This document shows positions 3,598 through 63,941 of a DNA stretch of 64,000 nt, one piece after another. Position numbers and translations under genes: made by a program. The DNA is from Stegostoma tigrinum. Its lineage: Eukaryota. Within the stretch, counting starts at the first letter, position 1. Every line of letters starts with the position of its first letter. Under the pieces are notes generated by a model. That model was not told the DNA's origin. It searched no databases and was given only the letters and a program-made list of their open reading frames with translations. The DNA lies in NCBI RefSeq assembly GCF_030684315.1, contig NC_081362.1, positions 43,861,744-43,925,743 of the forward strand, given 5' to 3'.

Positions 3598-3747
3598 CAA
3601 ACAAAAATAAAGTTACTGGAAAAGCTCAGCAGGTCTGGCAACATCTGTGAAGGAGAAAACAGATTAAACGTTTCGGGTCCAGTGACACTTCCTCAGAACT
3701 GCTATTCTGGGAGAGCAAGGCCATTTAGAAAAACTTGTTGGTGATAC
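3598..3747 (-). repeat. Hammerhead element plus flank; right arm of the inverted repeat
   Basis: Reverse complement contains CTGAGGAAGTGTCACTGGACCCGAAACGTT and the same upstream flank as 2626-2676. Confidence 0.8.
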
Positions 3748-4926: not shown

Positions 4927-5179
4927 CCAAAGTGAGAATCCAAGATAATGAAATGTGAGGCTGGATGAACACAGCAGGCCCAGCAGCATTTCAGGAGCAC
5001 AAATGCTGACATTTCGGGTCTAAACCCTTCATCAGACCTGATGAAGGATCTAGGCCCAAAACGTCAGCTTTTGTGCTCCTGAGATGCTGCTGAGCCTGCT
5101 GTGTTCATCCAGCCTCACATTTCATTATCTTGGGTTCTCCAGCATCTGCAGTTCCCATTATCTAGCCAATGTGAGAATC
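4927..5179. mobile_element. Fold-back PLE hammerhead element (family A) with TSD
   Basis: Inverted arms meet at 5035-5038. Hammerhead cores at 5008-5035 (-) and 5038-5065 (+; GAAA>AAAA). Flanked by CCAA[A/T]GTGAGAATC at 4927-4940 and 5166-5179. Confidence 0.85.
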
Positions 5180-11100: not shown

Positions 11101-11224
11101 AAACTTTGCAGCCAAGACTTGTTACAGTGGGTTTAATAGTTACAGTTGGTGGCTGTCAGGAAAGAGAGACAGACAGAGATAACCTCCTAACACAAAGTCC
11201 TATCCCACATCGCTTCCTTAGGGA

Positions 11225-16745: not shown

Positions 16746-17490
16746 CCTGGATGTGAGTTTGCTCGCTGAGCTGAAAGGTTAGTTTTCAGACGTTTCGTCA
16801 CCATTCTAGGTAACTTCATCAGTGAGCCTCCGACAAAGCGCTGGTGTTATGTCCCGCTTTCTATTTATCTGGTTAGGTTTCCTTGGATGGGTGATGTCAT
16901 CTCCTGCGTTGGTAATGTCATTTCCTGTTCTTTTTCTCAGGGGATGGTAGATTGGCTCCAAATCAATGTGTTTGTTGATGGTGTTCCGGTTGGAATGCTA
17001 TGCTTCTAGGAATTCTCGTGCGTGTCTCTGTTTGGCTTGTCCTAGGATGGATGTGTTGTCCCAATCAAAGTGGTGCCCTTCCTCATCTGTATGTAAGGAT
17101 CCGAGTGATAGTGGGTCATGTCGTTTTGTGGCTAGTTGATGTTCATGTATCCTGGTGGCTAGCTTTCTGCCAGTTTGTCCAATGTAGTGTTTGTCACAGT
17201 TCTTGCAAGGTATTTTGTAGATGACGTTCGTTTTGTTTGTTGTCTGTATAGGGTCTTTTAAGTTCATTAGCTGCTGTTTTAGTGTGTTGGTGGGTTTGTG
17301 GGCTACCCTGATGCCAAGAGGTCTGAGTAGTCTGGCAGTCATTTCGGAAATGTCTTTGATGTAGGGGAGAGTGGTTATGGTTTCTGAGCCCATTTTGTCT
17401 CTTTGTTTGGGTTTATTGCTGAGGAATCGGCGGACTGTGTTCATAGGGTAACCATTCTTTTTGAATACACTGTATAGGTGATTAGGAAGG
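16746..17490 (-). mobile_element. Penelope-like element (Penelope/Poseidon-type) 3' part: GIY-YIG endonuclease plus terminal hammerhead
   Basis: ORF 16998-17498: NGYP, LPYIKDISE, NVIYKIPCKNCDKHYIGQTGRKLATRIHEH, REFLEA. Confidence 0.9.
16789..16822 (-). ncRNA. Minimal hammerhead ribozyme motif of the second PLE family
   Basis: Antisense CTGATGA-A-GTTACC-TAGAAT-GGTGAC-GAAAC-GTC; stem II GTTACC/GGTGAC; stem I TCA/TGA. Confidence 0.8.
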
Positions 17491-18585
17491 CAGGCCACAA
17501 GTCCTCCTGCCCTGGAATTAATCAGGGCAGAGGCAGGAGAAAGAGACAGAGTTCCAACTTCACAGTTTCATGTGTAATTAAATGTCTTCCAAGTCACTTC
17601 AGCAGAAAGTTCACTGAATATTGACTACCTCATCAGCTGCCCAGCCAACAGTGTGGTGAAACATTGGTTGGATGCTACAATTTGCTGCAATAACAGCCAC
17701 AACAAAACTTGAGAGATGCCATTCTCTTCAGTTGTAGAAGTTATCACTGTTAAACCTGATCCTGTACTTTCTAAACTACCAAATATTATTCTCTCCATGA
17801 ACATTTCAGGCCATGCGTCAACCTTTTCATAATAACAGGAACTGCATTCACTGGATTTGGAGTTTTTTGGCATCAACTGACAAGATCAGTTAGAAGGTGG
17901 AACTGAAGGTTGTCAGAACTAATCAACTGTATGTTGCTTCCACTGTATATTTAGCTGCATGCATAATTAAGGCAAAAGTCTTTTATGATTAGCTAATGGT
18001 TAAAGGAGTTCTTATAATTGTTTATTTTGAAATAAATTTTATGCAACGTATGAATAGCCATAATCAAACTTTTCAATGTTTTATTATTGCAAGATCCTTC
18101 TGAAATAAACACTGCTGGTACTTCCAGTGAAGGTTTATTTTTATTAACTACATTTTCTTGACATAAGTGAAGTGAACCAAATTGTAAATTTAAAAAAGTA
18201 ATCTATCATTTGTTTCATTTTGCTTCACTTCCAAAATTGGTAGTATTTGTGGCAGAACATGAGGTGGATTGAAATGGAAATAATTCTCTTTTAATTTTTC
18301 AAAACAAAAATCCTGAAGTGGGCGTTTCAAATTGACTATGACATATAATGTGGACTATTAGCCTGTTGGCAAATTGTAAACTCCCATTATGTTCTGCAAT
18401 ATGTAAATTGTTTTGAGTTGTTTCTGTACATGTGGTGGATGTTGTGTTGTTACTAAGCACTCATTAAACATACAGAAAAACTGGGTGGGAAGCAACTGAT
18501 AACTCTATTTATGTAATCTTATTCCTAGCAATCTACAACCAATCCCAAAGATCTGACTTCTCAGTTTTTTTTAATCATTACTTAC

Positions 18586-18783
18586 ATCAAAAATATGTCC
18601 AGGATAACAAAGTGTGAAGCTGGATGAACACAGCAGGCCAAGCAGCATCTCAGGAGCACAAAAGAACACAATTTTGTGCTCCTGAGATGCTGCTTGGCCT
18701 GCTGTGTTCATCCAGCCTCACACTTTGTTATCTTGGATTCTCCAGCATCTGCAGTTCGCATTATCTCTGATCAAAAATGTGTC
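18586..18783. mobile_element. Fold-back family-A element lacking the hammerhead core, with TSD
   Basis: Arms ...CAGGAGCACAAAA / TTTTGTGCTCCTG... TSD ATCAAAAAT[A/G]TGTC at 18586-18599 and 18770-18783. Confidence 0.85.
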
Positions 18784-18915
18784 AATTTCTTTTAAAATTA
18801 ACTCTGGTCTCAATCATTATCTGTGTTCTTTAAGCCCATTGCAAAAACAAATTTCTTCTATCTGCCCTCTTGAGTTCTTAGGCACTATTTCAAGTCAATA
18901 TATCAAATTAATATA

Positions 18916-20801
18916 TTGAGGTATGAAGGAAAACTGGCCAAAAATATAAAGGAGGATAGTAAAAGCTTTTTTAGGTATGTGAAAAGAAAAGAAATGGTTA
19001 AGACTGAAATTGGGCTCTTGAAGATAGAAATGGGTGAATTTATTATGGGGAACAAGGAAATGGCAGAAGAGTTGAATAGGTTCTTTGGATCTGTCTTCAC
19101 TAGGGAAGACACAAACAATCTCCCAGATATAATAGTGGCTGAAGGACAGAGGGTAATGGATGATCTGAAGGAAATTTATATTAGGCAGGAAATGGTGTTG
19201 GATAGATTGTTAGGTCTGAAGGCTGATAAGTCCCTGGGACCTGATGGTCTGCATCCCAGGGTACTTAAGGAGGTGGCTCTAGAAATCGTGGATGCATTGG
19301 TAATCATTTTCCAATGTTCTATAGATTCAGGACCAGTTCCTGCGGATTGGAGGGTGGCTAATGTTGTCCCGCTTTTCAAGAAAGGAGGGAGAGAGAAAAC
19401 AGGGAATTTTAGACCAGTTAGCCTGACGTCAGTGGTGGGAAAGATGCTGGAGTCAACTATAAAAGATGAAATTACGAATCATTTGGATAGCAGTAACAGG
19501 ATAGGTCAGAGTCAGCATGGATTTACGAAGGGGAAATCATTCTTGACTAATCTTCTGGAATTTTTTGAGGATGTATCTATGAAGTTGGACAAGGGAGAAC
19601 CAGTGGATGTAGTGTACCTGGACTTTCAGAAAGCCGTTGATAAAGTCCCACACGGGATATTGGTGAGCAAAATTAGGGCACATGGTATTGAGGGCAAAAT
19701 ACTGAGTTGGATTGAAAATTGGCTTGCTGACAGGAGCAAAGAGTAGTCATAAACGGGTCCCTTTCGGAATGGCAGGCAGTGACCAGTAGGGTACCACAAG
19801 GTTCGGTGCTGGGACCGCAGCTCTTTGAGATATATATTAATGATACAGACGAAAGCATTAAAAGTAATATTAGCAAATTTGCTGATGACACAAAGTTGGG
19901 TGGCAGGGTGAAATGTGAGGAGGATGTTATGAGAATACAGGGTGACTTGGACAGGCTAGGTGAGTGGATGGAAGCATGGCAGATGCAGTTTAATGTGGAT
20001 AAATGTGCGGTTATCCACTTTGGTGGCAAGAACAGGAAGGCAGATTACTATCTAAATGGAGTCAAGTTAGGTAAAGGGGAAGTTCAACGAGATCTAGGTG
20101 ATCTTGTACATCAGTCAATGAAAGCAAGCATGCAGGTACAGCAAGCAGTGAAGAAAGCAAATGGCATGCTGGCCTTCATAACAAGAGGAATTGAGTGTAG
20201 GAGCAAAGAGATCCTTCTGCAGCTGTACAGGGCCCTTGTGAGACCGCACTTGGAGTATTGTGTGCAGTTTTAGTCTCCAAATTTGAGGAAGGACATTCTT
20301 GCTATTGAGGGAGTGCAGCATAGATTCACGAGGTCAATTCCCGGAATGGCAGGACTATCATATGTTGAAAGATTGGAGCAACTGGGCTTGTATACACTTG
20401 AGTTTAGAAAGATGAGAGGGGATCTGATTTTGAGATGTATAAGATTTTTAAGGGATTGGACACTCTGGAGGCAGGAAGCACGTTTCCACTGAAGGGTGAG
20501 TCCAGAACCAGAGGACACAGTTTAAAAATAAGGGGTAGGCCATTTAGAACAGAGTTGAGGAAAAACTTCTTCACCCAGAGAGTGGTGGATATATGGAATG
20601 CTCTGCCCCAGAAGGCAGTGGAGGCCAAGTCTCTGGATACTTTCAAGAAAGAGATGGATAGAGCTCTTAAGGATAGTGGAATCAAGGGTTATGGGGATAA
20701 GGCAGGAACAGGATACTGATTGTAGATGATCAGCCATGATCATAATGCATGGTGGTGCTGGTTCCAAGGGCCGAATGGCCTACTTCAGCACCTATTGTCT
20801 A
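18916..20801 (+). mobile_element. CR1-type LINE, 5'-truncated ORF2 (RT) with few disruptions
   Basis: ORFs 18916-19746, 19779-20273, 20283-20492 and 20435-20719: GPDGLHPRVLKE, QHGFTKGKS.LTNL, VYLDFQKA, PQGSVLGP, SKFADDTKL, LVRPHLEYC, FFTQRVV. Confidence 0.95.
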
Positions 20802-21968: not shown

Positions 21969-22206
21969 CTATGAATTTAGCAAAACGTGGAGCTGGATGA
22001 ACACAACAGGCCAAGCAGCATCTTAGGAGCACAAAAGCTGACGTTTCGGACCTAGTCCCTCTTTCTGATGAAGGGTCTAGGCCCGAAACATCAGCTTTTG
22101 TGCTCCTAAGATGCTGCTTGGCCTGTTGTGTTCATCCAGCCCCACACTTTGTTATCTCGGATTCTTCAGCATCTGCAGTTCTCATTATCTCTATGAATTT
22201 AGCAAA
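21969..22206. mobile_element. Fold-back family-A hammerhead element with perfect 16-bp TSD
   Basis: CTATGAATTTAGCAAA at 21969-21984 and 22191-22206. Sense core CTGATGAAGGGTCTAGGCCCGAAACATC at 22065-22092; partial antisense core at 22040-22060. Confidence 0.9.
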
Positions 22207-24772: not shown

Positions 24773-26142
24773 AAATTTCTACTCCTGAACACCCTCACAA
24801 CAGCAAGCGCCCTAAATCTCTGCTATCAAAAGGGCTGCATTTACAGTCAATGCCAAGACAGACCCTGTTATTTAGGTCAAACACCTACCCATTGCAAAAG
24901 AACGAGGATCCATAATGGGATATCTGGAAAAAATATATGAAGATGATCCTGATAATGCAGTGTTAAACAAACAAGAGCATATTACTCCATCAACAGATGT
25001 CAATCTTAATTTAAGGTTTTTCTCATTAAACTAAACAAGTTGAAGAATAAAGCTGTATAACTGAATCATTGTGGCAGGTTTCATTCTGTCATGAAATTTG
25101 CTGTTGAGTAAAGCAGATGGCTTGTTTTCCCTTTTACGTCTGTGGTGTGCATTGCTATTTTGGGTTTTCTTAGACCTAGCAACACCAAGGGTCATTGCTT
25201 GAAAATATTGTTAAGAATTTTGGTGGACCAAGTTCTGATTGTTAAAAATATATTAATCAGCTCACCACTATAGTTTGAATTACTTAAGGTATTTTAATGT
25301 TTTCCAGACTTCACAGCATATTGTCTTCATATCAACTGTCTATTGTTTTAAAGTTATAGAAACAAATGCTCATAGAAAATTGTTTGTGTTGAATGAGAAA
25401 ACATCAGCTTTTGTATTATTAAATCACTACATTAGCATTTCTTGATTTGCGTTACAAATTCAGGCCGTACGGTTCAATAATACAATATCTTCCAAGAGAT
25501 TGCAACAATCCTTTCCATGAATATGAATGCAGACAGAAAAGCTATTAAAAAGTAAGACCAAGTTTTTTTTTATGATGCAACTTTTCAACAATTACATTCA
25601 TTCTTTATATAACTACATGTTTCTCTGATTAAATCTTTAATTTCAAGTATAAGTTTAATGAAATACATATTATTGTTAAAATGCTCATACCAGTTCACTA
25701 AGAAAAAGAAAGTACTTTTTTTCATTTTCATGCTGAAGTTTGACCCAGATTTTGTAAGTGTAATACACTATAATTTATTCACTGTAAGAGAATGAGTATG
25801 TTATTAGTATGGTGAAACCAAGAGACTGAAATGAACTACTTGACCTAAATACATTTCGTTACAAAGCTTCTGATTAGTTAATCATAAGTGGTCTTTACAG
25901 GTCCTACCTGGAATCTTCAGCAGAGGCAAATGTGGTATTTTGCCAATGCTGACAATTTTATTTCCTTCTTTTTACTCAGCAGGATAGCCAGGAAAAGAGC
26001 TATCAAAACATTTAAATCATTGGATTTTAAACTAGATTTCTGACCTTCAAAATAATGGAAACTACAGTTTCTCTTTCTGAAATGTTTAAATCCTCTCCAT
26101 CGTTCTGGTCTTCTATCTTAAACGAGACAAAGTCCAAGATGC

Positions 26143-28482
26143 TCAACCTCAACCTCTCCACCCCTCTCACCCACTCCAACCTCTCCCCCGCAGAACGGGC
26201 AGCCCTCCGCTCCCTCCATTCCAACCCCAACCTCACGATCAAACCCGCAGACAAGGGTGGCGCAGTGGTAGTATGGCGCACTGACCTCTACATCGCTGAG
26301 GCCAGACACCAACTCTCCGACACCACCTCCTACCACCCCCTCGATCATGACCCCACACCCGAGCACCAAACCATCATCTCCAACACCATTCACGACCTCA
26401 TCACCTCAGGGGACCTCCCACCCACAGCCTCCAACCTCATTGTTCCCCAACCCCGCACGGCCCGTTTCTATCCCCTTCCCAAAATCCACAAACCTGCCTG
26501 CCCTGGTCGACCCATCGTCTCAGCCTGCTCCTGCCCCAACGAACTCATCTCCACCTATCTGGACTCCATTTTCTCCCCTTTGGTCCAGGAACTCCCTACC
26601 TACGTCCGTGACACCACCCACGCCCTCCACCTCCTCCAGGACTTCCAATTCCTGGCCCCCAACACCTCATATTCACCATGGACATCCAATCCCTATACAC
26701 CTGCATTCCGCATGCAGATGGCCTCAAGGCCCTCCACTTCTTCCTGTCCCACAGGCCCGACCAGTCCCCCTCCACTGACACTCTCATCCGCCTAGCTGAA
26801 CTCGTCCTCACCCTCAACAACTTCTCTTTTGACTCCTCCCACTTCCTACAGACTAAGGGGGTGGCCATGGGCACCCGCATGGGCCCCAGCTATGCCTGCC
26901 TCTTTGTAGGTTACGTGGAACAGTCCCTCTTCCGCACCTACACAGGCCCCAAACCCCACCTCTTCCTCCGTTACCTTGATGACTGTATCGGCGCCGCCTC
27001 TTGCTCCCCAGAGGAGCTCGAACAGTTCATCCACTTCACCAACACCTTCCACCCCAACCTTCAGTTCACCTGGGCCATCTCCAGCACATCCCTCACCTTC
27101 CTGGACCTCTCAGTCTCCATCTCAGGTAACCAGCTCGTAACTGATGTCCATTTCAAACCCACCGACTCCCACAGCTACCTAGAATACACCTCCTCCCACC
27201 CATACTCCTGCAAAAATTCCATCCCCTATTCCCAATTCCTCCGCCTCCGCCGCATCTGCTCCCACGATAAGACATTCCACTCCCGCACATCCCAGATGTC
27301 CAAGTTCTTTAAGGACCGCAACTTTCCCCCCACAGTGATCGAGAACACCCTTGACCGCGTCTCCCGTATTTCCCGCAACACATCCCTCACACCCCGCCCC
27401 CGCCACAACCGCCCTAAGAGGATCCCCCTTGTTCTCACACACCACCCTACCAACCTCCGGATACAACGCATCATCCTCCGACACTTCCGCCATTTACAAT
27501 CCGACCCCACCACCCAAGACATTTTTCCATCCCCACCCCTGTCTGCTTTCCGGAGAGACCACTCTCTCTGTGACTCCCTTGTTCGCTCCACACTGCCCTC
27601 CAACCCCACCACACCCGGCACCTTCCCCTGCAACCGCAGGAAATGCTACACTTGCCCCCACACCTCCTCCCTCACCCCTATCCCAGGCCCCAAGATGACA
27701 TTCCACATTAAGCAGAGGTTCACCTGCACATCTGCCAATGTGGTATACTGCATCCATTGTACCTGGTGCGCCTTCCTCTACATTGGGGAAACCAAGCAGA
27801 GGCTTGGAGACTGCTTTGCAGATCACCTCCGCTCAGTTTGCAACAAACAACTGCACCTCCCAGTCGCAAACCATTTCCACTCCCCCTCCCATTCTCTAGA
27901 TGACCTGTCCATCATGGGCCTCCTGCTCTGCCACAATGATGCCACCCGAAGGTTGCAGGAACAGCAACTCATATTCCGCCTGGGAACCCTGCAGCCTAAT
28001 GGTATCAATGTGGACTTCACCAGTTTCAAAATCTCCCCTTCCCCTACTGCATCCCAAAACCAGCCCAGTTCGTCCCCTCCCCCCACTGCACCACACAACC
28101 AGCCCAGCTCTTCCCCCCCCACCCACTGCATCCCAAAACCAGTCCAACCTGTCTCTGCCTCCCTAACCGGTTCTTCCTCTCACCCATCCCTTCCTCCCAC
28201 CCCAAGTCGCACCCCCATCTACCTACTAACCTCATCCCACCTCCTTGACCTGTCCGTCCTCCCTGGACTGACCTATCCCCTCCCTATCTCCCCACCTATA
28301 CTCTCTCCACCTACCTTCTTTACTCTCCCTCTTCAGTCCGCCTCCCCCTCTCCCTATTTATTCCAGTTCCCTCTCCCCATCCCCCTCTCTGATGAAGGGT
28401 CTAGGCCCGAAACGTCAGCTTTTGTGCTCCTGAGATGCTGCTTGGCCTGCTGTGTTCATCCAGCCTCACATTTTATTATCTT
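26143..28482 (+). mobile_element. Penelope-like element (Neptune-type linker), 5'-truncated, near-intact RT + GIY-YIG, 14-bp TSD
   Basis: TIKPADKGGAVVVW, PKIHK..CPGRPIVS, MDIQSLYT, QTKGVAMGTRMGPSYACLF, RYLDD, FLD, PCNRRKCYTC, NVVYCIHC..C..LYIGETK. One frameshift near 26652. TSD AAAGTCCAAGATGC at 26129-26142 and 28483-28496. Confidence 0.95.
28389..28416 (+). ncRNA. Minimal hammerhead ribozyme motif at the PLE 3' end
   Basis: CTGATGA-A-GGGTC-TA-GGCCC-GAAAC-GTC: intact catalytic core, palindromic ACGT at stem III, only ~2 bp of local stem I. Confidence 0.8.
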
Positions 28483-29009
28483 AAAGTCCAAGATGCAATT
28501 TGTTTTGCCAAGCAGCTTCCAGCAATTGGCTCCTGAGCATGTTGGCCGTTCTTCAGCAGTGAGCCCAGACAGTGAGTAATGGCAAGTTATTGACTATGTT
28601 GATCACATTTGGTAAAATGCATTGATCCAATTTTAGGACATACATGCATACGTACACAGTGTAATACTCAAGTCACTCGCTGCAATCAAAGTTAAAAACC
28701 TGTTTGATTTTCTGCACCCCAACACCATGATGATAAAAGCAACTAATTCTCATATGAGTACCCCAGTTTAGGACAAGCGACTCAGAAATAAATAGATTTC
28801 AAGGCTGGAATTGTCCCACATTGTGTAGTTCGTCTTCATTGCCCACAATGAGCCTCAGAAATGAGAGAATTGGAGAAGAAATGTTATAATTATACAGTTA
28901 ACTGTACCTATTGTTTTGCATTGAACATCTACCACAATTTATTTTATATGAATCCCTGAAAATAAACTTGCACATCATTGCTCTTTAATGGACAGCAGAC
29001 ACTTATCAG

Positions 29010-31740
29010 TCAGACAAGCAGGAGGCTGGAAGAACACAGCAAACCAGGCAGCATCTGGAGGAAAGAAGCAGTCAACATTTTAGTATTATTCTTCTTCAGG
29101 ACTGGATATGGGGGTAGGGGAAGCTGCAGATAAAGTTGGGGGGGGGGGGGGGGAAAGAGGGGGATAGTGAAATGGTGGTGATAGTTGGACACTGGTAGGA
29201 GGCACAACCTAGTTGGTTTCTGGAGGAATGACTCCACTTGGTAGCTGGAAGGGAGGGTCAGTAGGTGGAGTGGAAGGGAGAAGGTGGGGCTGGAAGGGGA
29301 GCCGGGAGGTGGGTCTTTTGAAATTGGAGAGCAAAGTGTTGAGTCTGTCTGGCTTTAGAGTGCCCAGGCAGAAGATAAAGGTGTTGTTTTCAAATTTGCC
29401 TTCTGAATCACTGCAACACTGCAGGAGGCCAAGGACAGACATATCAGAGAGGGGTTAGAGGGATAAAGTCAAAATGGGCAGTGGTAGGGAGGTTACACTG
29501 CCCATTATGGGCCAGGCAAAGATGCTTGGTAAAACAGTCACCTATTCCACATTTGGTCTCACCAACTTACAGAAGACCACATTGGGAGAACCAGATGCAG
29601 CGCACTATGTTAGAGGAGATGCAAGTGAAGCTGTCTCACTTGGAAGGGCAGTTAAGGGCCCTGAATGTAGGTGAGGGAGGTGGTGTGTGGACAGGTGTTA
29701 CATCTTTTAGGTTACAGGGGACAGTACCAGGCAGGTTGGATTAGTTGGTGGGGAGTGTGGTGCAAACTTAGGAGTGGTGAAGGGGATGGTCCTTATGGAA
29801 AGCAAAGAAGGGTGGGGGTGGAAGATGTTCTGGGTGGTGGGGTCTAATTGGAGTTGGTGGAAGTGTTTGAGGATGATGCATTGGATGTGGAGGCTGGTTG
29901 AATGGAAAATGAGGACAAGGGGGAACCCTACCTTTATGTTTGGAAGGGAGAGCAGGCTTAGAGCTATGAAGCTGGGAATGGAGGATGCACAGTGAAGGGC
30001 TGTCTGGATGTGAGAGAGTGGGGAAGAGAGCATTGTTTAAAAAGGCGGACATCTGAGCTGATGGGAGTGGAACATCTCCCTGTCAGAACAGATCCGATGG
30101 ACACAGGAATTGGGAAGATAGGATGGCGTTTTTGCAGGATACTGGGTGGGAGAATATGTAGTCTAGGTAGCTATGAGTGTCAGTGGGTTTATAGTAAATG
30201 TCAGTCCATAAACTGTCACCAGAAATGGAGAGGTCAAGAAAGGGGAGGGAGGTATCTGAGTTTGACCAAGTAGATTCGAGAGAGGGTGAGAGCTGTTAGC
30301 AAAGTTTATGAACTGTTCCAGTTCAGACCTTGTGTGGATGCAGTTCTGACACAGTCAATTAACTGCAGAAGATTTGGGGAACAGTCCCAGTGTATGTACT
30401 GAAGAGAGATTGTTCAACATAACTGACAAAGAGGAAGGCATAGCCAGGGCCCATGCGAGTGCCCATGGCAACTCCCTAGATTTGAAGAAGTTGGAAGAAT
30501 TGAGGGAAAATCCATTGAAGCTGACGACTAGTTTGGCAAGGCAGAGGATGATATTGGTAGGGAGGACTGGATGGGTCTGTTGGAGAGGAAAAAAACTAAG
30601 GGTCTGTAGACTGTCCTTGTTGGGTATGGACGTGTATAGGGATTGAAAGTCTATAGTAAAGATGAAGTGTTGTGGGCCTGGGAACTGAAGTTTCCACAGA
30701 GGTAGACGGCGTGGTTTGTAGATAGGGAGTGCACAGGCCAAATGGGAGAGGACAGAGTTGAAGCAGGAAGAGATGGGTTCAGTGGTGCAGGGGCATGCTG
30801 AGACAATGGGTAGGCCAGGGTAATGGGTTTGTGGATCTTAGGGAACAGGTAGAACCGGACACTGTGGGGCTGGGGGGCTAAGGCTGGAGGTGGTGGTGGA
30901 GGGGAGGTCACCAGACACAATGAGGTCATGGATAGTGTGGGAGATGGTAGCTTGATGGGCCATAGTGGGATTGTGATCAGGGAGAGGTAGAATGTGGTGA
31001 TGGAGAGTTTGCAATCAGCCTCTGTAATAAAGAGGTTCATCCTCCAGACTACCATTCTACCACCTTTGTCAGTGGGTTTGATAGTGAAATGGGGATTGGT
31101 GCATAGAGAGTATAGCACTGCATGTTCAGTGAGGGAGAAGTTGTAGTGGGTGATGGAGGTTGAAGAAAGAGGTGGTCAATGTCACATTGGCAGTTAGCAA
31201 TGAAGAGGCCCAAGGCAGGTAATAGGCCAGCAGGGGGTGTCCAAGAGGAGAAGGAAGATTTGAGGCAGGAGAAGGGGTCCCCAGGTGGTGGTTGGGAGTC
31301 TTTATTGAAGGTGGCATGGAGATAGAGGTGGCAGGAGAAGAGTTCCACATCATGACAGGCACAGAACTCATTGAGATGAGAGCAGAGAGGCACAAAGGTG
31401 AGCCCTTTACTGAGGGCAGACCATTTGGCCTCAGAGTTTAAAGTCACAGGGAACAGTGACTATGCAGCAAGGTTCAGGGATCAGATTTTGGGGAGTCTTG
31501 AAGTTGAAGAAAGAGACAGGGGGAGGGCAATAGCATGTGGTGGGTGCCAGATAGATGGGCTGTGGAGGGAGCTCAGTAGGTCTGAGAGGGAAAGGAGAGT
31601 TGGAGCATGGTGGGCTGGAGAATTAGATGCATGGAGGGGTGTGAGAGAGATGAGATAGAGACAAGTGAGGAGAGGTGGATGGTTAGGGTGTGAAGTGGGG
31701 GCAGACAGATAAGGAGGGAGAGGCATGCTGGCTAGCTGTG
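29010..31740 (-). mobile_element. Older, degenerate Penelope-like element
   Basis: Minus-strand fragments SALSKGLTFVP, FTIKPTDKGG, PKIHKP, IDFQSLYTSIP, PLVLIFH and LGTLKP, collinear with the 26143-28482 element. Confidence 0.88.
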
Positions 31741-31789
31741 AGTGGGCAGTGGGAATCCCATAGCTACCTAGACTAGCTGTGGGCTCATA

Positions 31790-32290
31790 ACGGCCAGCCT
31801 AACCTCCCGCTCACTGCCCATTTCAACCCCTCCAACATGTCTGTCCTCAGCCTCCTGCTGTGTCAGTGATTCAGAATGCAAATTTGAGGAACAACACCTT
31901 ACCTTCTGCCTGGGCATCCTACAGCTCAGACGACTCAACTTTGAGTTCCCTAATTTCAAACCGTCCATCCACTAGCTCCCCTTACAGCCCCAATTCCTTC
32001 CTTCTATTCCACATTCTGACCCTCCCTTCCAACTGCCAATCAGATTTATCCCTCTCATCGACCAACCACATTGTAGCTACCACCAGTGTCCACCTATCAT
32101 CACCATTCCACTAATTCCTCTGCCCGCCCCCTATCTGCAGCTCCTCCTAACTCCACATCCAGACTTGATGAAGGGTAATACCCGAAATGTTAACTTTTCC
32201 TTTTCTCCAGATGCTGCCGGGCTTTCTGTGTTTTTCCAGCCTCCTGTCTGTCTCCCTTGCATTCCAGTATCTGTTGTTTTTTTTGTCTTT
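31790..32290 (+). mobile_element. Inverted 3'-end copy of the PLE, abutting the 5' side of the 29010-31740 copy
   Basis: GIY-YIG C-terminal remnant, pyrimidine tract, TTGATGAAGGG...CCCGAAATGT at ~32166-32190 and AGATGCTGCC tail. Confidence 0.75.
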
Positions 32291-35542: not shown

Positions 35543-36280
35543 ATAGATAACAAGGTGTAGAGCTGGATGAACACAGCGGGCCAAGCAGCATCAGTGGAGC
35601 AGGAAGGCTGACGTTTCGGGCCTAGACCCTTCTTCAAAATTCTGGCTTTGCAGAACACCTCCGCTCGGTTTGCAATAAACAACTGCACCTCCCAGTCGTG
35701 AACCATTTTAACTCCCCCTCCCATTCCTTAGACGACAGGTCCATCATGGGCCTCCTGCAGTGCCACAATGATGCCGCCTGAAGGTTGCAGGAACAGCAAC
35801 TCATATTCCGCTTGGGAACCCTGCTGTCCAATGGTATCAATGTGGACGTCACAAGTTTCAAAATCTCCCCTTCCCCCACCGCATCCCAAAACCACTCCAG
35901 TTCGTCCCCTCCCCCCACTGCATCCCAAAACCAGTCCAGCTCGTCACCGCCTCCCTAACCTGTTCTTCCTCTCACCTATCCCCTCCTCCCACCTCAAGCC
36001 GCACCTCCATATCCCACCTACTAACTTCATCCCGTCTCCTTGACCTGTCCATCCTCCCCGAACTGACCTATCCCCTCCCCACCTCCCCTCTACACTCTCC
36101 GCTCCACTTATCTTCTCCTCTATCCATCTTCGGTCCACCTCCCCCTCTCTCCCTATTTATTTCAGAATTCTCTCCCCAACCCCCTCTCTGATGAAAGGTC
36201 TAGGCCCAAAATGTCAGCTTTTGTGCTCCTGAGATGCTGCTTGGCGTGCTGGGTTCATCCAGCTTCACACTTTGTTATCT
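35543..36280 (+). mobile_element. PLE 3' fragment with a short inverted 3' arm at its 5' side
   Basis: 35543-35638 is antisense tail plus hammerhead. 35645-36280 is sense GIY-YIG C-terminus, sub-repeats, hammerhead (~36188) and tail. Confidence 0.88.
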
Positions 36281-41323: not shown

Positions 41324-42399
41324 TGATGATGGTACCAAGAATTTAAGAGGTGTATTTTATAATTCTTTTATGAAAAGAGGTTGAGACTGAGGTGAAGAGC
41401 AGTTTATTCCAAGCCAATAATGTAAACAACTTATGAGGCCTTGTTTGTTTTTAGAAGTTGGAACAATAGAAGCAGCATGAATGGGTGGTGTCAGGCTCCC
41501 ACAGAACCAGGATTTTAGTTCAGCTTTCAGTATTTGTTGGGGTTTTAAACCTGTCATGTATCTCTCCCGTCTACAGCAAAACACACTCCCTGCCAGAATT
41601 TCTCTTGATGTTCTTTCCTCCTGGACTGTAGAAACATTACAAGTGAGACAATCTAGTGAGTTTTGATAAGATTTGTAGCTCAGGTTGAGGTTCTGGATGT
41701 GAGTTTGCTCGCTGAGCTGGAAGATTAGTTTTCAGACGTTTCGTCACCATACTAGGTAACATCATCAGTGTGCCTCTGACGAAGCGCTGGTGTTATGTCC
41801 CGCTTTCTATTTATCTGGTTAGGTTTTCTTGGGTGGGTGATGTCATTTCCTGTGTTGGTGATGTCATTTCCTATTCTTTTTCTCAGGGGATGGTAGATTG
41901 GCTCCAAATCAATGTGTTTGTTGATGGAGTTCCGGTTGGAATGCCATGCTTCTAGGAATTCTCGTGCATGTCTCTGTTTGGCTTGTCCTAGGATGGATGT
42001 GTTGTCCCAATCAAAGTGGTGTCCTTCCTCATCTGTATGTAAGGATACGAGTGATAGTGGGTCATGTCGTTTTGTGAGACAATCTATTTTGCTGGATTTG
42101 CCCTTGCCAAGGGTGTTTTTATGTGATGTTACTATATTGGAACAGTTGCTGTTTAGTACTTAAATAATCTATTATTCTGTTCAGTTTTCCAAAGGAGTTA
42201 AAGTTAAACCAATTCTCTTCTCTTTCATTTATATTTAAAATGTAGAGCAAGAATAAAGAGTGTTTTTCTTAAAGCTAAACCGTACAGCCAGTCAAATTGC
42301 ATCCGGAACAAAGCACCTTATACTTGCCTTTAAATAAGAAAAAGTTAGGGTCTAGGCTATCTCCTTGACATTTTTGAAGGCTTGGTCCAGTCCATAACA
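41324..42399 (+). mobile_element. Probable solo LTR, interrupted by a PLE fragment
   Basis: Begins TG, ends ...CCATAACA, contains AATAAA. Collinear with the reverse complement of 56870-57505. Confidence 0.55.
41656..42073 (-). mobile_element. Penelope/Poseidon-type 3' fragment with hammerhead and 13-bp TSD
   Basis: Highly similar to 16746-17130. Hammerhead at 41735-41768 (-). TSD GTGAGACAATCTA at 41643-41655 and 42074-42086. Confidence 0.9.
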
Positions 42400-46985: not shown

Positions 46986-47920
46986 GGCAAAGACAGCATG
47001 TAGGAGAAGGAACATATCTTTAATGTACTCCTTTCCTCCAGCTGTCAGAACTCTCATAATATCAGATCCTCCTTACTTGTTAGTCCACCCACCCTCAGTT
47101 GAGGATCAGAATTCCTTCTGGATCAGATCAACACTGGCCCTTCACTCCAGAAACCCTGAAAATGATACTGGTCCTTCCATGTCCTACAACCAATTTTGGA
47201 ATACTTCTCACCTTGCTGGAAGCCTTGACCAGCAATCAGGCAGGCTTCTGGGCAGCTAATTATCTGGATCAGAAAAACACAATTAAAAATCCATAATAGC
47301 CTGAAGGACCACACACTTTGAGGCATACCAATTGTCCTAGCTCATCAACAAGACAGTGAGATGGAGGGACTGGCATTAATTATAGGAGAAAGCTGATGGT
47401 AATCATGGCGTGGGAAAAATAGGAGGAAAGTAGTGTTGATTGTCAGAGGTTTTGGCCAAGGTCATGGTGATGTCGGACAAGTAGGGCAAAGATAGCAGTA
47501 TTCAGTGGTGTGACAAATGGAAGGCAGGAGTTCCAGGGGATTATGGAGGCAAGAATTGAGGCAGGTTGATGTCTATATAATTTCATGTCAGTGGCAAGCA
47601 TGTTGAATTACTAACACCATACCACCCATGCCATTTTCAGGAAAGCCAGTTCAGTCACAGAATGGCTACATACAAGCAGTGGGTAGCTTGTGTAGGCAAG
47701 TCAAAGGCCAAAAATAATGATGAGAGGCTGAGTGGCATTTTCTAATTGGCCTTGGGGCACCCCATAGCACTGACAGCATTGACAGCTGTACGGAGGCAGC
47801 CTTCCTGTGGTAGACTGAAGGCCTAGTCCATGTCAAAGACTTTCAGTCTCTCACAGTCTACCTGGTTACAGCTATAGCTCTGAGTCACCAGGGGAAGGAG
47901 TCCTAACTTCAAATCAGAGG

Positions 47921-50900
47921 TGGAGATAATAGGAACAGCAGATGCTGGAGAATCCGAGATAACAAGGTGTGGAGCTGGATGAACACAGCAGGCCAAGCAG
48001 CATCTTAGGAGCAGGAAAGCTGACCATTCGGGCCTAGATCCTTCATCAGAAATGGGGGAAGGGAAGAGGGTTCTGAAATAAATAGGGAGAGAAGGGGAGG
48101 CAGATTGAAGCTGGATAGAGCAGAAGATAGGTGGAGAAGAGACAGACAAGTTAAAAAGGCGGGGATAGAGCCAATAAAAGTGAGTATAGGTGGGGAGGTA
48201 GGGGGGGATAGGTCAGTCCGGGGAGGACAGACAGGTCAAGGGGGGCAGGCTGAGGTTAGTAGTTGGGAAACTGGAGTGCAGCTTGAGGTGGGAGGAGGGG
48301 ATAGGTAAGAGGAAGAACAGGTTAGGGAGGCAGGGACGAGCTGAGCTGGTTTTGGGGTGCGGTGGGGGGAGGGGAGATTTTGAAGCTTATGAAATCCACA
48401 TTGATACCCTTGGGCTGCAAGGTTCCCAAGCAGAATATGAGTTGCTGTTCCTGCAAACTTCAGGTGGCATCGTTGTGGCACTGCAGGAAGCCCAGGATGG
48501 ACATGTCTTCTGAGGAATGGGAGGGGGAGTTGAAATGGTTTGTGACTGAGAGGTGCAGCTGTTTCAGCTGCAGAGGAGACAGCAACACTGAGTCCTGCTG
48601 AATCTTCACCATCCCCTCAGACCTCGTCCTTACTGAGCACAAACGGTCATTACTCAGTAAAGGGCTCACGTTTGTTCCCCTCCACCCACACATCAATGAA
48701 CACCAGTCACGTCTGGACATTGAACAATTTTTCCGCCACCTCCGCCTCCACGCTTATTTCTTTAACAATGAGCCTCCATTTACTCTCCATTTACTGAACA
48801 CTTCTCCCGTCTCCAATACAAGCCCTCCTCCTGGACACCACCCCAAGGCCTCCTACCCTCCCTTGACCTCTTCATCTCCAACTGCCGTCGAGACATCAAT
48901 CGCCACAAGCTCTCCACTCCTCCCATCCACTCCAATTTCTCCCCCGCAGAATGTGCAGCCGTCTGCTCCCTCTTTTCCAATCCCAACCTCACCATAAAGC
49001 CGTGGACAAGGGAGGTGCTGTTGTAATATGGCACACTGACCTCTACACCACTGAGGCCAGACACCAACTCTCCAACACCACCTCTTACCATCCCCTGGAT
49101 CATGACCCCACCCCCTAGCACCAAACCATCATCTCTCAAACCATCCACAACCTCATCACCTCAGGTGAACTCCCACCCACAGACTCCAACCTCATCATTC
49201 CCCAACCCCACACCACCCACTTCCATCTCCTTCCCAAAATCCACAAACCTTCCTGCCCTGGTCGACCCATTGTCTCAGCCTGTTCCTGCCCCACCGAACA
49301 CATCTCCACTTATCTGGACTCCATTTTCTCCCCCTTGGTCCAGGAACTCCCTACCTGGACTGGGGAGTGAAACCACTCACACCCTCCACCTCCTCCAGAA
49401 CTTCCAATTCCCTGACCCCCAACACATTATTTTTACGATAGACATCCAGTCCCCATACACCTGCATTCCGCATGCAGATGGCCTAAAGGTCCTCCGCTTC
49501 TTCCTGTTCCACAGGCCTGACCATCCCCCTCACCCACTTAGCTGAATTCATCCTTACCCTCAACAACTTCCCTTTCAATTCCTCCTACTTCCTACAGACA
49601 AAGGGGGTGGCCATGGGCACCCGTATGGGCCCAAGCTATGCCTGTCTCTTTGAAGGTTAAGAGGTACAATCCCTCTTCCATACCTACACTGGCCCTAAAC
49701 CCCACCTCTTCCTCCATTACATCCGTTACATTGATGACTGTTTCGACACCGCCTCATGCTCCCACGAGGAGCTCGAACAGTTCATCCACTTCACCAACAC
49801 ATTCCACTCCAACCTTATCTATAACATCTCCCTCACCTTCCTGGACCTCTCTGTCACGATCTCGGGCAACCACCTAGAAACCGATAAGCATTTCAAGCCC
49901 ACTGACTCCCACAGCTACCTAGAATACACCTTCTCCCACCCACCTTCTTGCAAAAATGCCACCTCCTATTCCTAATTCCTTCACCTCCACCGCATCTGCT
50001 CCCAGGATGAGGCATTCCATTCCCACACATCTCAGATGTCCTCGTTTTTCAACCAAAATAACGACCAAAAGAGAATCCCCCTCGCCCTCATCCTCACATA
50101 CGACCCCACCAACCTCCAGATTCAATGCATCATCCTCCGACACTTCCACCATCTGAAACCTGACCCCACCATGAAAGGCATTTTTCCCTCTCCACCCTTG
50201 TCTGCTTTCCGGAGGGACCACTCTCTCCATGACTCCTTTGCCTGCTCCACACTCCCCTCCAGCCCCACCACACCCAGCACTTTACCCTGCATCCCCCCTC
50301 ACCCCTATCCCAGGCCCCAAGAAGACTTTCCACATCAAGTAGATGTTCAACTGCACATCTGCTAATGTGGTACACTGCATCTGCTGTACCAGTTGTGGCC
50401 TCCTCTACATTGGGGAAACCAAGTGGAGGCTTGGGGACCACTTTGCAGCACACCTATGCTCAGTTCGCAATAAACAACTGCACCTCCCAGTTGCAAACCA
50501 TTTCAACTCCCCCTCCCATTCCTCAATGACATATCCATCCTGGGTCTCCTGCAGTGCCATAATGATGCCACCCAAAGGTTGCAGGAACAGCAGCTTATAC
50601 TCTGCTTGGGAACCCTGCAGCCCAATGGTATCAATGTGGATTTCACAAGCTTCAAAATCTCCCCTTTCCCCACCACATCCCAAAACCAGCCCAGTTCATC
50701 CCTGCCTCCATAAACTGTTCTTCCTCTCACCTATCCCCTCCTCCCACCTCAAGCCACACCCCCATTTCCTACCTACTCACCTCATCCCGCCCCCCTGTCC
50801 GGTCTGTCCTCCCTGGACTGACCTATCTCCTCCCTACCTCCCCACCTACACTCATCTTTACTGGCTCCATCCCCACGTCTTTAACTTGTCTGTCTTCTCC

Positions 50901-51046: not shown

Positions 51047-51720
51047 TTCAAATTGGAGGCCTTGCCCCGAGCATCAAGGTAGGGTCTGAATGGAACTGCA
51101 CATGTAGTCCTGAAGCAGTTCATGTTTTTTTTGAAAGTTGGGCTGAGAAGAACGCTTTAACTTCTTGTATTTCAACTGTCACAACTTTATAATTAGAAAA
51201 CTATATATTTTTCAAACTAGAAGATCTCCCTTTAAGTGGGCATAAGGGATCAAAAAAAGATGGTTTTGGCAGTCATTTGACTGTCCATTGTTGATTGATT
51301 TCAGCCAGAAAGGCAGACGGGATACTATATTACATTAGTACCAATTACAAAGGAAGACATTTAGGATTTGTTTAACCCTGTAACAAAACAATGGGTTTTT
51401 CTTAATGTGTTAGATTTCAAAGCTTCTGGGGAAGAAGTACAGAAGACTCGAATGACCTGGCAGAGGATTCCAAGTTTGTTTTGTGAAGTAATGATTCATC
51501 CAAAGTTTACGTACCAACCATCTTAAATTTTGATCGAAATATTTTTGCACGTTATTGAATTTGTAATGTTATTTCTACAATAACTTCTACGTTCAGCAAT
51601 GTGAAGCCCAATGCAACTGTGAACAGGGCAGCTGGGTTGATTTAATCTTGCATAGAGGCTGTTCAATAGTCTCCTCAATGTTAGAAAACCTCCACAGACT
51701 AAGCTGGAGGTAGAACGAAC

Positions 51721-51977
51721 CCATAAGTGAAGATAATAAAATGTGAGGCTGGATGAACACAGCAGGCCAAGCAGCATCTCAGGAGCACAAAAGCTGACGT
51801 TTCGGGCCTGGACCCTTCATCAGAGAAGGGTCTCTGATGAAGGGTCCAGGCCCGAAACGTCAGCTTTTGTGCTCCTGAGATGCTGCTGGGCCTGCTGTGT
51901 TCATCCAGCCTCACATTTTATTATCTTGGATTCTCCAGCATCTGCAGTTCCTATTATCTCTGATACCATAAGTGAAG
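51721..51977. mobile_element. Near-perfect fold-back element with intact hammerhead cores on both strands
   Basis: Arms 51730-51826 and 51831-51927 (97 bp each, one mismatch), loop AGGG. Cores at 51796-51823 (-) and 51834-51861 (+). TSD CCATAAGTGAAG at 51721-51732 and 51966-51977. Confidence 0.95.
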
Positions 51978-56278: not shown

Positions 56279-56440
56279 GAGATAGTAAGAACTACCAATG
56301 CTGGAGTCAGAGGTAACACAGTGTAGAGTTGGAGGAACACAACAAACCAGGCAGCATCAGAGCAGCAGGAAAGCTGACGTTTCAGGTCAGGACCTGAATT
56401 TCTGAATAAAGAAGCCAACCCGAAACGTCAGCTTTCCTGA
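56279..56440. mobile_element. Asymmetric family-A fold-back hammerhead remnant
   Basis: Antisense tail plus caggaaagctgacgtttc ... ccgaaacgtcagctttcctg. Confidence 0.7.
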
Positions 56441-56711: not shown

Positions 56712-56868
56712 AGAAAAATCAAAAGAACTGCGGATGCTGTAAATCAGGAACAAAAACAAAGTTGCTGGAAAAGCTCAGCAGGGCTGGCAGCATCTGTGGA
56801 GGAGAAAACGTTAACTCTGTTTCCTCCTCCACAGATGTTGCCAGACCTGCTGAGCTTTTCCAGCAGTT
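56712..56868. mobile_element. Family-B fold-back element without hammerhead core
   Basis: gctggaaaagctcagcagggctggcagcatctgtggaggag ... ctcctccacagatgttgccagacctgctgagcttttccagc, an inverted pair. Confidence 0.8.
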
Positions 56869-60234: not shown

Positions 60235-60453
60235 GAAGGCTTATCCCAGATAATAAAATGTGAGGCTGGATGAACACAGCAGGCCAAGCAGCATCTCAGG
60301 AGCACAAAAGCTGACGTTTTGGGCCTACACCCTTCATCAGAGGGCTTGTGCTCCTGAGATGCTGCTGGGCCTGCTGTGTTCATCCAGCCTCACATTTTAT
60401 TATCTTGGATTCTCCAGCATCTGCAGTTCCCATTATCTCGAAGGCTTATCCCA
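60235..60453. mobile_element. Fold-back family-A element with one hammerhead arm, 14-bp TSD
   Basis: GAAGGCTTATCCCA at 60235-60248 and 60440-60453. Antisense core at 60313-60340 (GAAA mutated); sense core deleted. Confidence 0.9.
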
Positions 60454-61208: not shown

Positions 61209-62675
61209 CGCCACCTTGTTGTGGTGGAGAGGCTTGTGTGTACCTAGAAAACTGAGAGCTAAACCATATGATGTGTAGCTCCTAGCAGGATTACCCATGA
61301 CATCAAGGTTAAGGGGGAGGTTCTATCAAAAGCACAATCCATGAAGATGTCAACTGCAGAGCAGGTGGGAGATGATAGCTGAACATAAATTAGAGCTTCA
61401 CAATGGTTGCAAGGGCAAAAATACCACAACAGAGAAGGGTCTGATGAAGGGTCTAGGTCCGAAACGTCAGCTTTTGTGCTCCTAAGATGCTGCTTGGCCT
61501 GCTTTTTTCATCTAGCTTGACGCTTTGTTATCTCAGATTCTCCAGCATCTGCAGTTCCCATTATCTCTGACCACAACAGAGAAGGGCTGCCAACCACCTT
61601 GGTCTCCATACCACTGCATTTTGACCCCTATCTGCCAAAGTCCATGTGGTGGCTGTATGTGCACCAGCCTCCTCACATTAAAAGATGTCACACACAGGCG
61701 CTCTCCCAAGAGGTACCTGTCCTACTTACATTCCAGCCACAAGTCCTATCACAATCAGCCAGCGGCAGAGAGGGCAGGACTGTGCTATCTGGAAGCCCAT
61801 AGTCACAAACTGACACATTAGATGGCGGGTGTCAGATACAATCATCTCATTCCTGGATGAGGCAGCTAGAGCATTTTGACAGCTGCACCCATGACTGAGT
61901 AGCCTTGTTTAAAAAGGTGCCCTAAAAATAGCCTGTCTCAAAGCTGGTTTACCGTATCCAGAGGGATCATCCACATGCGGCCAGAAACAAAGAATAATAA
62001 ACTTTGGAGCCTGGAAGCACCCTGATGGAGCCAGTAAACAGTGACCGACCTGAGGGAAGAACTTTGGTCAAGCCAGAAAACTGAAAAGATGCCAGATCGA
62101 CTGTGTTGCTCTTTCTGTAGCCCGCCTTGCAGATAAAGGGCAACTGAAGGAGGTGAAAGGTGATTACACCTTCTTCTGGAAAGGGACGGACACAGAGCCC
62201 CGGATTCATGGTGTTACATTCGCAATTAATAACCAGCTCATCAGTTGTATCTCTGCACTGTCTGTAGGGATCAACCACCAACTCATGACTATCTGCCTGA
62301 TTCTCACCAACAACATGATGGCTACAGTTGTGAGCACTTATGCCCCAACTCTTGACTCTGAGCAGGGAGCAAAGGAGAGTTTCTATGCAAACTTTTACAT
62401 ACTGTTGTTAAAAATCCCCAAGGAGGACAAATTATTCTTCTTGGAGACTTCAATGCCCGGGTTGGTTGGCCTTTGGAATAGCACCATTCAATGCTACATC
62501 AATTTCAATTGAGTCTTTCTTCTCACAAAATGCATTGAGCACAATCTCCCCATCACAAACACACTGTTCTGTCAAAAAAACAAATTCGAAGTGACTTGGA
62601 AGTACCCAGGCTCGAAATTATGGCACGCAATTGATCATGACATTGTTCACTCCAGGGATCGTCAGGATGCACATG
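61209..62675 (+). mobile_element. RTE-clade LINE 5' region and APE endonuclease remnant
   Basis: YTFFWKG..PRIHGVTFAI..GINHQLMT..TYAPTL..KESFY, LGDFNA, ITNTLF and TWKYPGSKLWHAIDH. 5' motif CGCCACCTTGTTGTGGTGGAGAGGCTTG resembles RTE 5' UTRs. Confidence 0.8.
61423..61586 (+). mobile_element. 130-bp monomeric hammerhead element with perfect 17-bp TSD
   Basis: ACCACAACAGAGAAGGG at 61423-61439 and 61570-61586. Insert starts 1 nt before CTGATGAAGGGTCTAGGTCCGAAACGTC (61441-61468). Confidence 0.92.
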
Positions 62676-63941
62676 TCAGGCTTGCCTTCATTGCTCAGCC
62701 CATTGAATATAGGAAATGGGAAAAGGACATTGGTGAGGCCTCTTCAGGAATACTATGCCCAGTTCTGGTCACCCAGTTTGTGGGAAGGGTATTATTAAGC
62801 TGGAGAGGGTTCAGAAGAGATTTGCCAGGATGTTGTTGGATATGGAAAGTAAGGAGGCATGGGATTCAGGGAAATTTGGTTGTCTGGATACAGAATTGGC
62901 TGTCCAATAGAAGACAGAGGGTGGCAGTGGATGGAAAGTATTCAGCCTGGAGCTCGGTGGCCAGTAGTGTTCTGCAAGGATCTGTTCTGGGACCTCTGTT
63001 CTTTGCAAATTTACTAAATGACTTGCATGAGGAAGTGGAAGTGTGGTTTAGTAAGTTTACTGGTGACACAAAGGTTGGTGGAGTTGTGGATAACGTGGAG
63101 GGCTGTTGTAGGTTACAATGGGATGTTGACAGGATGCAGAGCTGGGCAAAGAAGTGGCAAATGGAATCCAACCTTAAAAAGTACAAAGTGATTCATTTTG
63201 GGGGGTTGAATTTGAATGCAGAATACAAGATCAATGGCAGGATTCTTGGCAGTGTGGAGGAACAGAGAGATCTTGGGTCCACATCCAGAGATCAAACTTG
63301 ACAATGAAACTGATCGCATTGTTAAGAAGGCGTATGGTGTGTTGGCTTTCATTCACAAGGAGGTTGAGTTTAACAACCGCAAGGTTATGCGCAACTCAAG
63401 AACACCCTGGTTAGACCACACTTGGAATATTGTGTTCAGTTCTGGTTGCTTCATTATAGAGGGGGTGTGGAAGCTTTAGAGAGAGTTCTGATGCTGCTTG
63501 GACTGGAAGGCAGGTCTTACAGGGAAAGGTTGAGGGAGCTAGGGCTTTTTTCTTTGAAGTGAAGAAGGATGAGAGGTGGCTTGATCGGGGTGTACAAGAT
63601 GATGAGAGGTATAAATGAAATGGGTATCCAGAGACTTTTTCCTAGGATGGAAATGGCTATCATGAGGGGGCATAATTCTAAAATGATTGGAGGAAAGTAC
63701 AGGAGAGATGTCAGAGGTAGGTAATTTGCACAGCAAGTGGTGGGTGCATGGAATGCGTTGCCAGCAGTGGTTATAGAGTCAGATGCATTAGGGACATTTA
63801 AGTGACTCTCGGATAAGCACATGGATGATAGTAAAATGAAGAGTATGCAGGTTAGTTTGATCTTAGATACGGGAAATAGGTCGGCACAACATCGTGGGCT
63901 GAAGGGTCTGTACTGTGCTGTACTGTTCTATGTTGTATGTA
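62676..63941 (+). mobile_element. Two nested or adjacent CR1 fragments
   Basis: 62676-62848 is a late-RT segment (LAFI..YR, ERVQKRF). From ~62849 the sequence restarts earlier in RT (VRRHGIQG, QGSVLGP, KFTGDTKV) and runs to a tgttctatgtt tail. Confidence 0.85.

Follow-up and report, generated by a model that had tools for sequence, protein, structure and literature searches.

The fold-back element at positions 51721–51977 of the 64-kb stretch of DNA analysed here (the window) is a dead-on-arrival, extremely 5′-truncated and 5′-inverted insertion of a Neptune-like Penelope retrotransposon. We put the probability that it is an inverted stub of a Penelope-like element (PLE), made anew at insertion, at about 0.9. 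The element is of an already known kind: head-to-head PLE ends and pairs of hammerheads on opposite strands have both been published. We refer to it as F4 and to its four closest relatives in the window as F1, F2, F3 and F5.

Anatomy of the fold-back element

The two arms of F4 (51730–51826 and 51831–51927) are reverse complements with a single mismatch (51769/51888) and 4 nt between them, as a previous sequence-only reading had stated. They are surrounded by an exact 12-bp direct repeat, the target-site duplication (TSD; 51721–51732 and 51966–51977); within the window this 12-mer is confined to these two sites, and a flanking match of this kind has a chance probability of ~7e-5. Insertion of F4 as one unit, proposed in the same reading, is supported. 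With element position 1 set at window position 51831, the parts of F4 are:

51721–51732, unstranded: left TSD copy, 12 bp; its final 3 nt are shared with the beginning of the inverted arm (microhomology)
51730–51826, minus strand: inverted arm, a 5′-truncated, tail-less PLE 3′ end (element positions 1–97); first templated base 51733 (position 94)
51796–51823, minus strand: hammerhead, minimal type-I motif, C3 to C17; nominal cut between 51796 and 51795
51827–51830, unstranded: head-to-head junction, with two possible readings
51831–51927, plus strand: forward arm, a 5′-truncated PLE 3′ end (positions 1–97), unlike the inverted arm only at 51888 (position 58)
51834–51861, plus strand: hammerhead, same sequence as on the minus strand; nominal cut between 51861 and 51862
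51928–51965, plus strand: PLE tail, 38 nt, on one arm only
51966–51977, unstranded: right TSD copy, 12 bp

The structure is asymmetric: the plus-strand arm runs on into the 38-nt tail, a ‘tail’ in the sense defined in PMC8557442, PMC3846280 and PMC11167929, and the left TSD copy overlaps the minus-strand arm by 3 nt. The junction nucleotides 51827–51830 either extend the inverted arm by 4 nt, 3 of which match the long PLE copy described below, or belong to a re-copied 8-nt piece. On the former reading the inverted arm aligns over 101 nt with 28382–28482 (98%); on the latter, the 8 nt at 51825–51832 recur at 51839–51846. The forward arm is 97.9% identical to 28386–28482. The whole 257-nt span folds at –204.9 kcal/mol (plus strand) and –204.5 kcal/mol (minus strand) against shuffle means near –75 (z about –26), and none of 200 shuffles was as stable.

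A variant common to both arms had been pointed out earlier. Both F4 arms indeed carry C at element position 17, where the copies at 22065, 28389 and 61441 have T, but the variant is not strictly private, as a diverged copy at 46817 also has C (one of the ten other rows covering the site).

The parent is an ordinary Penelope-like element

Searching the window with the forward arm gave 26 alignments, one of them the self-match. The arm turned out to be the last 97 nt of a 2.3-kb PLE copy (98% identical), which supports the PLE origin suspected previously:

26143–28482, plus strand: long parent PLE copy, 5′-truncated, with the same 97-nt end and without a tail; exact 14-bp TSD at 26129–26142 / 28483–28496

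The hairpin thus consists of an ordinary PLE terminal repeat, and the proposal of a distinct non-coding mini-element, or viroid-like rod, is not supported.

The coding region of the parent is split over two frames, 26031–26795 and 26612–28579 (RT and GIY-YIG). Against Pfam, the open reading frame (ORF) at 26612–28579 matched RVT_1 with an E-value of 1e-5 and 25.8 bits, below the cut-off of 29.6; the Pfam GIY-YIG model gave no match for this ORF, and its GIY-YIG motif region aligns with four homologues carrying PF01541. The first 515 residues of the ORF retrieved 727 proteins at E-values up to 1e-20 (8000 candidates scored). Its best protein matches come from Rhincodon typus (87%) and Stegostoma tigrinum (92%), both carpet sharks, which makes a member of this group the most likely source of the window. 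A nine-row alignment (the window ORF plus 8 of the 120 listed matches) contains the RT motifs, a CX4CxxC linker and a GIY-CxxC-YIG endonuclease with conserved histidines; C383, C386, H405 and H421 are invariant across the nine rows, and the linker finger of the window ORF reads C340-x4-C345-x2-C348.

According to PMC8557442, a CX2-5CxxC finger in the linker belongs to Neptune and Nematis and is absent in Penelope and Poseidon. By the definitions of that paper the motifs of the parent place it among the C-terminal EN+ PLEs, with Neptune and Nematis as the matching types. Neptune would be the likelier of the two, given the motif and the fact that vertebrate PLEs have been reported as Neptune or Poseidon.

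Five fold-backs with five different junctions

A scan of the window for close inverted repeats returned eight pairs: five of the F4 family, two made of more diverged PLE ends, and one unrelated AT-rich palindrome. The four relatives of F4 are:

4934–5163, plus strand: F1, both arms span the hammerhead and both cores are mutated; 2-nt centre; 14-bp TSD with one mismatch
18598–18771, plus strand: F2, without hammerhead; arms start at positions 34 and 35; 14-bp TSD with one mismatch
21978–22192, plus strand: F3, the tail arm alone spans the core, which has one change; inverted arm ending at position 11; TSD of 16 bp, exact
60243–60439, plus strand: F5, the inverted arm alone spans the core, which has one change; tail arm beginning at position 37; TSD of 14 bp, exact

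The 5′ ends of the tail arm and the inverted arm, respectively, lie at positions 4 and 3 in F1, 35 and 34 in F2, –5 and 11 in F3, 1 and –3 in F4, and 37 and 2 in F5. The hammerhead is accordingly spanned by two arms in F1 and F4, by one in F3 and F5, and by none in F2. In the older fold-backs, complementarity between arms is down to 91–97%.

The junctions differ in all five fold-backs of the 64-kb window, with no recurrence, and so does the hammerhead content. By the criterion set out in the earlier reading, this indicates a new inversion at each insertion instead of a self-propagating hairpin family. The basis is five fold-backs in 64 kb; the F4 junction may recur elsewhere in the genome.

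Apart from their junctions, the fold-backs share one plan. Five of the nine short-copy loci compared here have the fold-back form, and in each of the five one arm has a tail ending at positions 129–135, the other arm has no tail and its first templated base at positions 86–98, and a TSD of 12–16 bp bounds the insert. In every case the TSD end and the element agree where the inverted arm begins (runs of 7, 2, 3 and 3 nt; 5 of the last 6 nt in F5). Four tail-less copies outside the five fold-backs end at positions 95–97; inverted arms thus start where independent copies start.

A near-identical 7-nt AT-rich motif precedes both the tail-less and the tail-bearing ends (positions 91–97 and 124–130, or 51921–51927 and 51954–51960), the two occurrences being 33 nt apart; it is a candidate signal for two RT start sites. 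The tail arm lies on the right (plus strand) in all five fold-backs, for which the chance is 1 in 16, and on the left in two older fold-backs. At 61423–61586 there is a solo stub with a tail and an exact 17-bp TSD, the last 6 nt of which repeat element positions 9–14 just before the insert; this suggests microhomology slippage at the 5′ junction.

Formation of the inverted stubs

Within the accepted inverted-stub picture, dual priming is the route towards which we lean. The GIY-YIG endonuclease would nick both target strands 12 bp apart. One target 3′ end would prime reverse transcription at a distal start site (the tail end, position ~135), and the other target end would anneal through the 3-nt microhomology at a proximal start site (~97). 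Both cDNAs would stop just upstream of the hammerhead and would then be joined, two template stretches from one source lineage probably having been copied. A PLE protein described in PMC11167929 nicks and extends both strands in vitro, starting from two RNA sites that bound the tail, and was modelled as a dimer.

The stub could instead have been made anew by self-priming, or snap-back: the tail-primed cDNA would fold at its 3′ end and copy itself, microhomology then linking the new strand to the other target end. Arkhipova et al. 2013 put forward a closely similar self-priming scheme, and PMC3846280 interprets palindromes at head-to-head junctions as signs of self-priming. Arm ends within 1–4 nt of each other in F1, F2 and F4, the longer tail arm of F3 with its junction microhomology, and the variants common to both arms in F1 (C89), F3 (T65) and F4 (C17) all speak for snap-back. 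Such arm-shared variants are simplest to explain if one arm was copied from the other; dual priming needs one source locus or later arm-to-arm conversion. We nevertheless find snap-back doubtful, slightly less so once the inverted-stub picture is accepted. In four of the five fold-backs the 5′ extent of the inverted arm exceeds that of the tail arm, by 1, 1, 4 and, in F5, 35 nt, and copying from a tail-primed cDNA cannot give a longer inverted arm. The arms of F4 and of F5 each differ at one site, in both cases the segregating position 58, where the tail arm has G and its partner T; elsewhere, each of the F1 arms has G and 11 rows have T. Because of these two observations, and because inverted-arm starts match those of independent tail-less copies, dual priming is favoured over snap-back; the extension of both strands in vitro (PMC11167929) also counts against the latter. 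The earlier suggestion of copying of one arm from the other, or of a single template for the two, stands only in part: C17 in both F4 arms agrees with it, but at position 58, which has both alleles among the other copies, the arms are unlike each other, and the F5 arms show the same split. Position 58 adjoins a G run, where repeated slippage could give the appearance of two templates, and post-insertion deletions in the centre of the palindrome could have altered the lengths of the arms. A fold-back ancestor common to F4 and F5 would likewise leave their T/G pattern, although the two are unlike in junction and at position 17.

A hairpin mini-element that is non-autonomous but propagates itself, akin to retrozymes or retroviroids, being transcribed and retrotransposed in folded-back form and having working ribozymes on both strands, would agree with the one-unit insertion with its TSD, the intact cores on both F4 strands, the similar outer ends of the five fold-backs, and the arm difference common to F4 and F5. 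We hold it to be very improbable, since all five junctions are unique, one or both cores are missing in three of the five, the other two-core fold-back (F1) has both cores mutated, and the F5 inverted arm lacks C17. F4 has no tandem or terminal redundancy, a single cut per strand gives no unit-length monomer, motifs on opposite strands make impossible the cis dimer that minimal hammerheads need, and both motifs are predicted to be buried. Equally slight is the probability of two independent insertions, or of a later inverted duplication of a solo stub at the DNA level. Here the arm difference at position 58 fits, as does the site at 35545–36280, where a short minus-strand arm abuts a 640-nt plus-strand copy, both tail-less and apparently of different subfamilies, and no TSD was found. 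Against this, one exact 12-bp TSD bounds both arms of F4, there is no inverted duplicate of the host flanks, and all five fold-backs repeat this architecture with TSDs. Perfect palindromes are a known class of artefact, and an origin of F4 in assembly or in chimeric reads has to be weighed for this reason. The TSD, the one-sided tail, the mismatch between the arms, and the older fold-backs with diverged arms make this the least probable of the readings.

Returning to dual priming, all five fold-backs pair a distal-start arm with a proximal-start arm, sometimes apparently from two templates. A more speculative extension, which we think unlikely as a whole, is that a dimeric PLE enzyme uses both target strands as primers on two templates, with a fixed division of labour, and that the 5′ ends in addition mark the RNA start and ribozyme cleavage in vivo.

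Positions of the 5′ ends

The 5′ ends of the copies gather just before the hammerhead, at positions –5 to 5. Eight of 14 short-arm ends fall into one 9-nt interval (P-value 0.00025 against a uniform null, which is crude, the two arms of a locus not being independent and four long copies having been left out), or seven of 14 with two ends re-mapped to –5 and –3. Counted per locus, the cluster holds 4–6 of nine, with P-values of 0.13–0.0007. Three further 5′ ends, from two loci, lie at positions 34–37, just past the nominal cut at 31/32.

These clusters could mark the RNA start and cleavage in vivo, something that RNA-seq had failed to show for the anole element. Just as well, they lie on either side of a 6-bp hairpin (positions 4–9 with 28–33), the preferred predicted fold of the monomer, and RT stalling could be their cause. 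A splice acceptor behind the cluster was also considered and is not supported, the nearest AG after a pyrimidine run being ~20 nt upstream of the cluster.

The hammerhead motif and its predicted folding

Each F4 strand had been described as carrying an intact hammerhead core. This is correct for the conserved nucleotides only: helix I has 2 bp, helix II 4–5 bp, and helix III is palindromic and loopless. The motif has the features of the minimal PLE hammerhead, as given by the descriptor in PMC4209133, namely the core nucleotides, the extra base at 9/10.1, G10.1-C11.1, and the palindromic 15.2/16.2. On the plus strand only, the junction adds four weak pairs to helix I after a mismatch. Across the family, helix I/II pairs are kept in 89.5% of 76 cells, and covariation is not above that of shuffles (277 of 500 as high). 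Eight of the 12 copies that span the core have core substitutions, both F1 arms included; the F4 core is intact because F4 is young, with two differences per arm from the long copy.

Scanning the whole window with Rfam at E-values up to 1 revealed no hammerhead family. The seven matches obtained at this threshold are all to microRNA-precursor models, below their gathering scores, and all lie on fold-backs; we read them as generic hairpin matches. The top sub-threshold microRNA-model matches fall on the fold-back at 56725–56865, one of two older ones (the other at 56279–56439) that derive from more diverged PLE ends.

The prediction that a near-perfect duplex of ~100 bp would sequester the ribozyme in any read-through transcript is borne out by the predicted fold. 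When either strand is modelled as a 457-nt transcript, the antisense arm is made ahead of the hammerhead, the core bases are unpaired with p ≤ 0.003, and opening them would cost 29 kcal/mol (secondary-structure model only). Since the two motifs lie on opposite strands, each transcript contains one motif and its antisense and never a same-sense pair, so no cis dimer can form; with one site per strand and no terminal redundancy, a unit-length RNA cannot be released. Two co-folded monomers gave an extended duplex and not the helix-III dimer, a weak indication given that ViennaRNA ignores tertiary contacts. For minimal hammerheads in vitro, no activity of monomers and weak activity of dimers were reported (PMC4209133), and the anole ribozyme required its protein (PMC11167929). 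The ‘ambisense double hammerhead’ of F4 follows passively from the presence of the hammerhead within the element's final 100 nt.

Comparison with known systems

Head-to-head is the most frequent arrangement of PLEs, with one TSD round the insert (PMC3846280). In the inverted-pLTR insertions of EN+ PLEs (PMC3846280; PMC8557442), an inverted 5′-truncated copy lies beside a direct copy, head to head, with a 30–40 nt tail at one end and a single TSD, and this is what we observed in all five fold-backs. F4 differs from those insertions in having no ORF and in that both partners are stubs of ~100 nt, which turns the entire insert into a near-perfect hairpin.

Schistosoma PLEs are known to carry minimal hammerheads in pairs, one per strand and ~100–700 bp apart (PMC4209133). 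The F4 cores are only 10 nt apart, and their helices are shorter than in Schistosoma (helix II 4–5 bp versus 7–8, helix I 2 bp versus 4–5); a 2-bp helix I is reported in the same paper for Drosophila virilis. The in vitro behaviour of Poseidon of Anolis (PAc; PMC11167929), with two RT start sites bounding the tail and nicking and extension of both strands, would explain an anatomy of one tailed and one tail-less arm. PAc belongs to another clade than the F4 parent, Poseidon having no linker Zn-finger, and the sections of PMC11167929 covered here do not report reconstitution of inverted products.

Like the non-LTR retrozymes (bioRxiv 10.64898/2026.07.22.740005), F4 is non-coding, PLE-derived, and equipped with a type-I hammerhead. 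Retrozymes are head-to-tail tandem units with hammerheads in consecutive units, whereas F4 is head-to-head with one motif per strand. F4 also resembles Avsunviroidae and the retroviroid CarSV (PMC12382478) in its length of ~250 nt, lack of coding capacity, hammerhead motifs on both strands, and strong self-pairing. Those are, however, circular RNAs that replicate by rolling circle with functional ribozymes in both polarities (PMC12382478). The second motif of F4 is simply the first one copied in inverted orientation, both are predicted to be fully paired, and there is no sign of a circle or a multimer; at the DNA level the element is a single unit with one site per strand and no terminal redundancy, which is not viroid-like.

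L1 twin priming produces a 5′ inversion by priming from the second nick, with microhomology at the TSD end, and its two primers copy different parts of one RNA. F4 is likewise inverted and has TSD microhomology, but here both primers would have copied the same 97 nt, which yields a palindrome. Our literature search, with most subscription journals outside its coverage, retrieved no description of short shark PLE fold-backs, and among articles on Penelope and twin priming, judged by titles and the beginnings of abstracts, nothing concerned PLE priming.

Implications for PLE integration

How tandem and inverted PLE structures form is stated as an open question in PMC8557442. The rival accounts are self-priming (PMC3846280) and priming at the nicks in both strands (PMC11167929); a genome-wide count of short shark fold-backs with clean TSDs can decide between them. 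A viroid-like element would have been striking; the sister copies in the window show F4 to be an ordinary inverted PLE insertion, which is useful mechanistically, as stubs of this type record PLE priming and RNA ends. If the density of five per 64 kb holds, a shark genome would be a very large sample for questions of priming and RNA ends and a dense source of perfect short duplex RNA.

Inverted Penelope copies reportedly yield siRNAs in Drosophila (PMC3681739), and heavy A-to-I editing of Penelope has been reported in a lizard (PMC5625713). By analogy, the F4 duplex of ~97 bp, if transcribed, is at most a plausible substrate for ADAR or Dicer, with silencing or editing as the outcome.

Surrounding repeats and gene context

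No host gene was recognised in the 150 of 153 non-repeat frames of at least 62 aa in the window that were scanned with Pfam; matches were limited to six of the 150 frames, two with retroelement domains and four weak and sub-threshold. A tRNA scan of the window returned none.

Close to F4, the segment 47923–51046 is a head-to-head composite of ~3.1 kb from the same PLE family, in which a tail-bearing minus-strand copy (47923–48564) is joined to a plus-strand copy that extends to ~51046. It has a possible 13-bp TSD with two mismatches (47908–47920 / 51047–51059) and seems to be a larger-scale form of F4. An older PLE composite at 29012–32253 has its body on the minus strand (67% to the long copy) and inverted terminal regions at 29012–29513 and 31782–32253; no TSD was found for it. 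Two further inverted pairs were noted, one tail-to-tail and made of an older PLE end (2626–2794 / 3579–3747), the other bracketing F1 (4102–4253 / 5453–5591).

A second PLE family is present on the minus strand at 16747–17567 and 41693–42159, with a GIY-YIG fragment (Pfam E-value 0.002) and a minimal hammerhead of its own at 16822 and 41768, whose helix II has 6 bp. LINE fragments with RT or endonuclease domains, presumably related to CR1/L2, which they resemble, lie at 11224–13783, 18874–20273 and 61967–63938.
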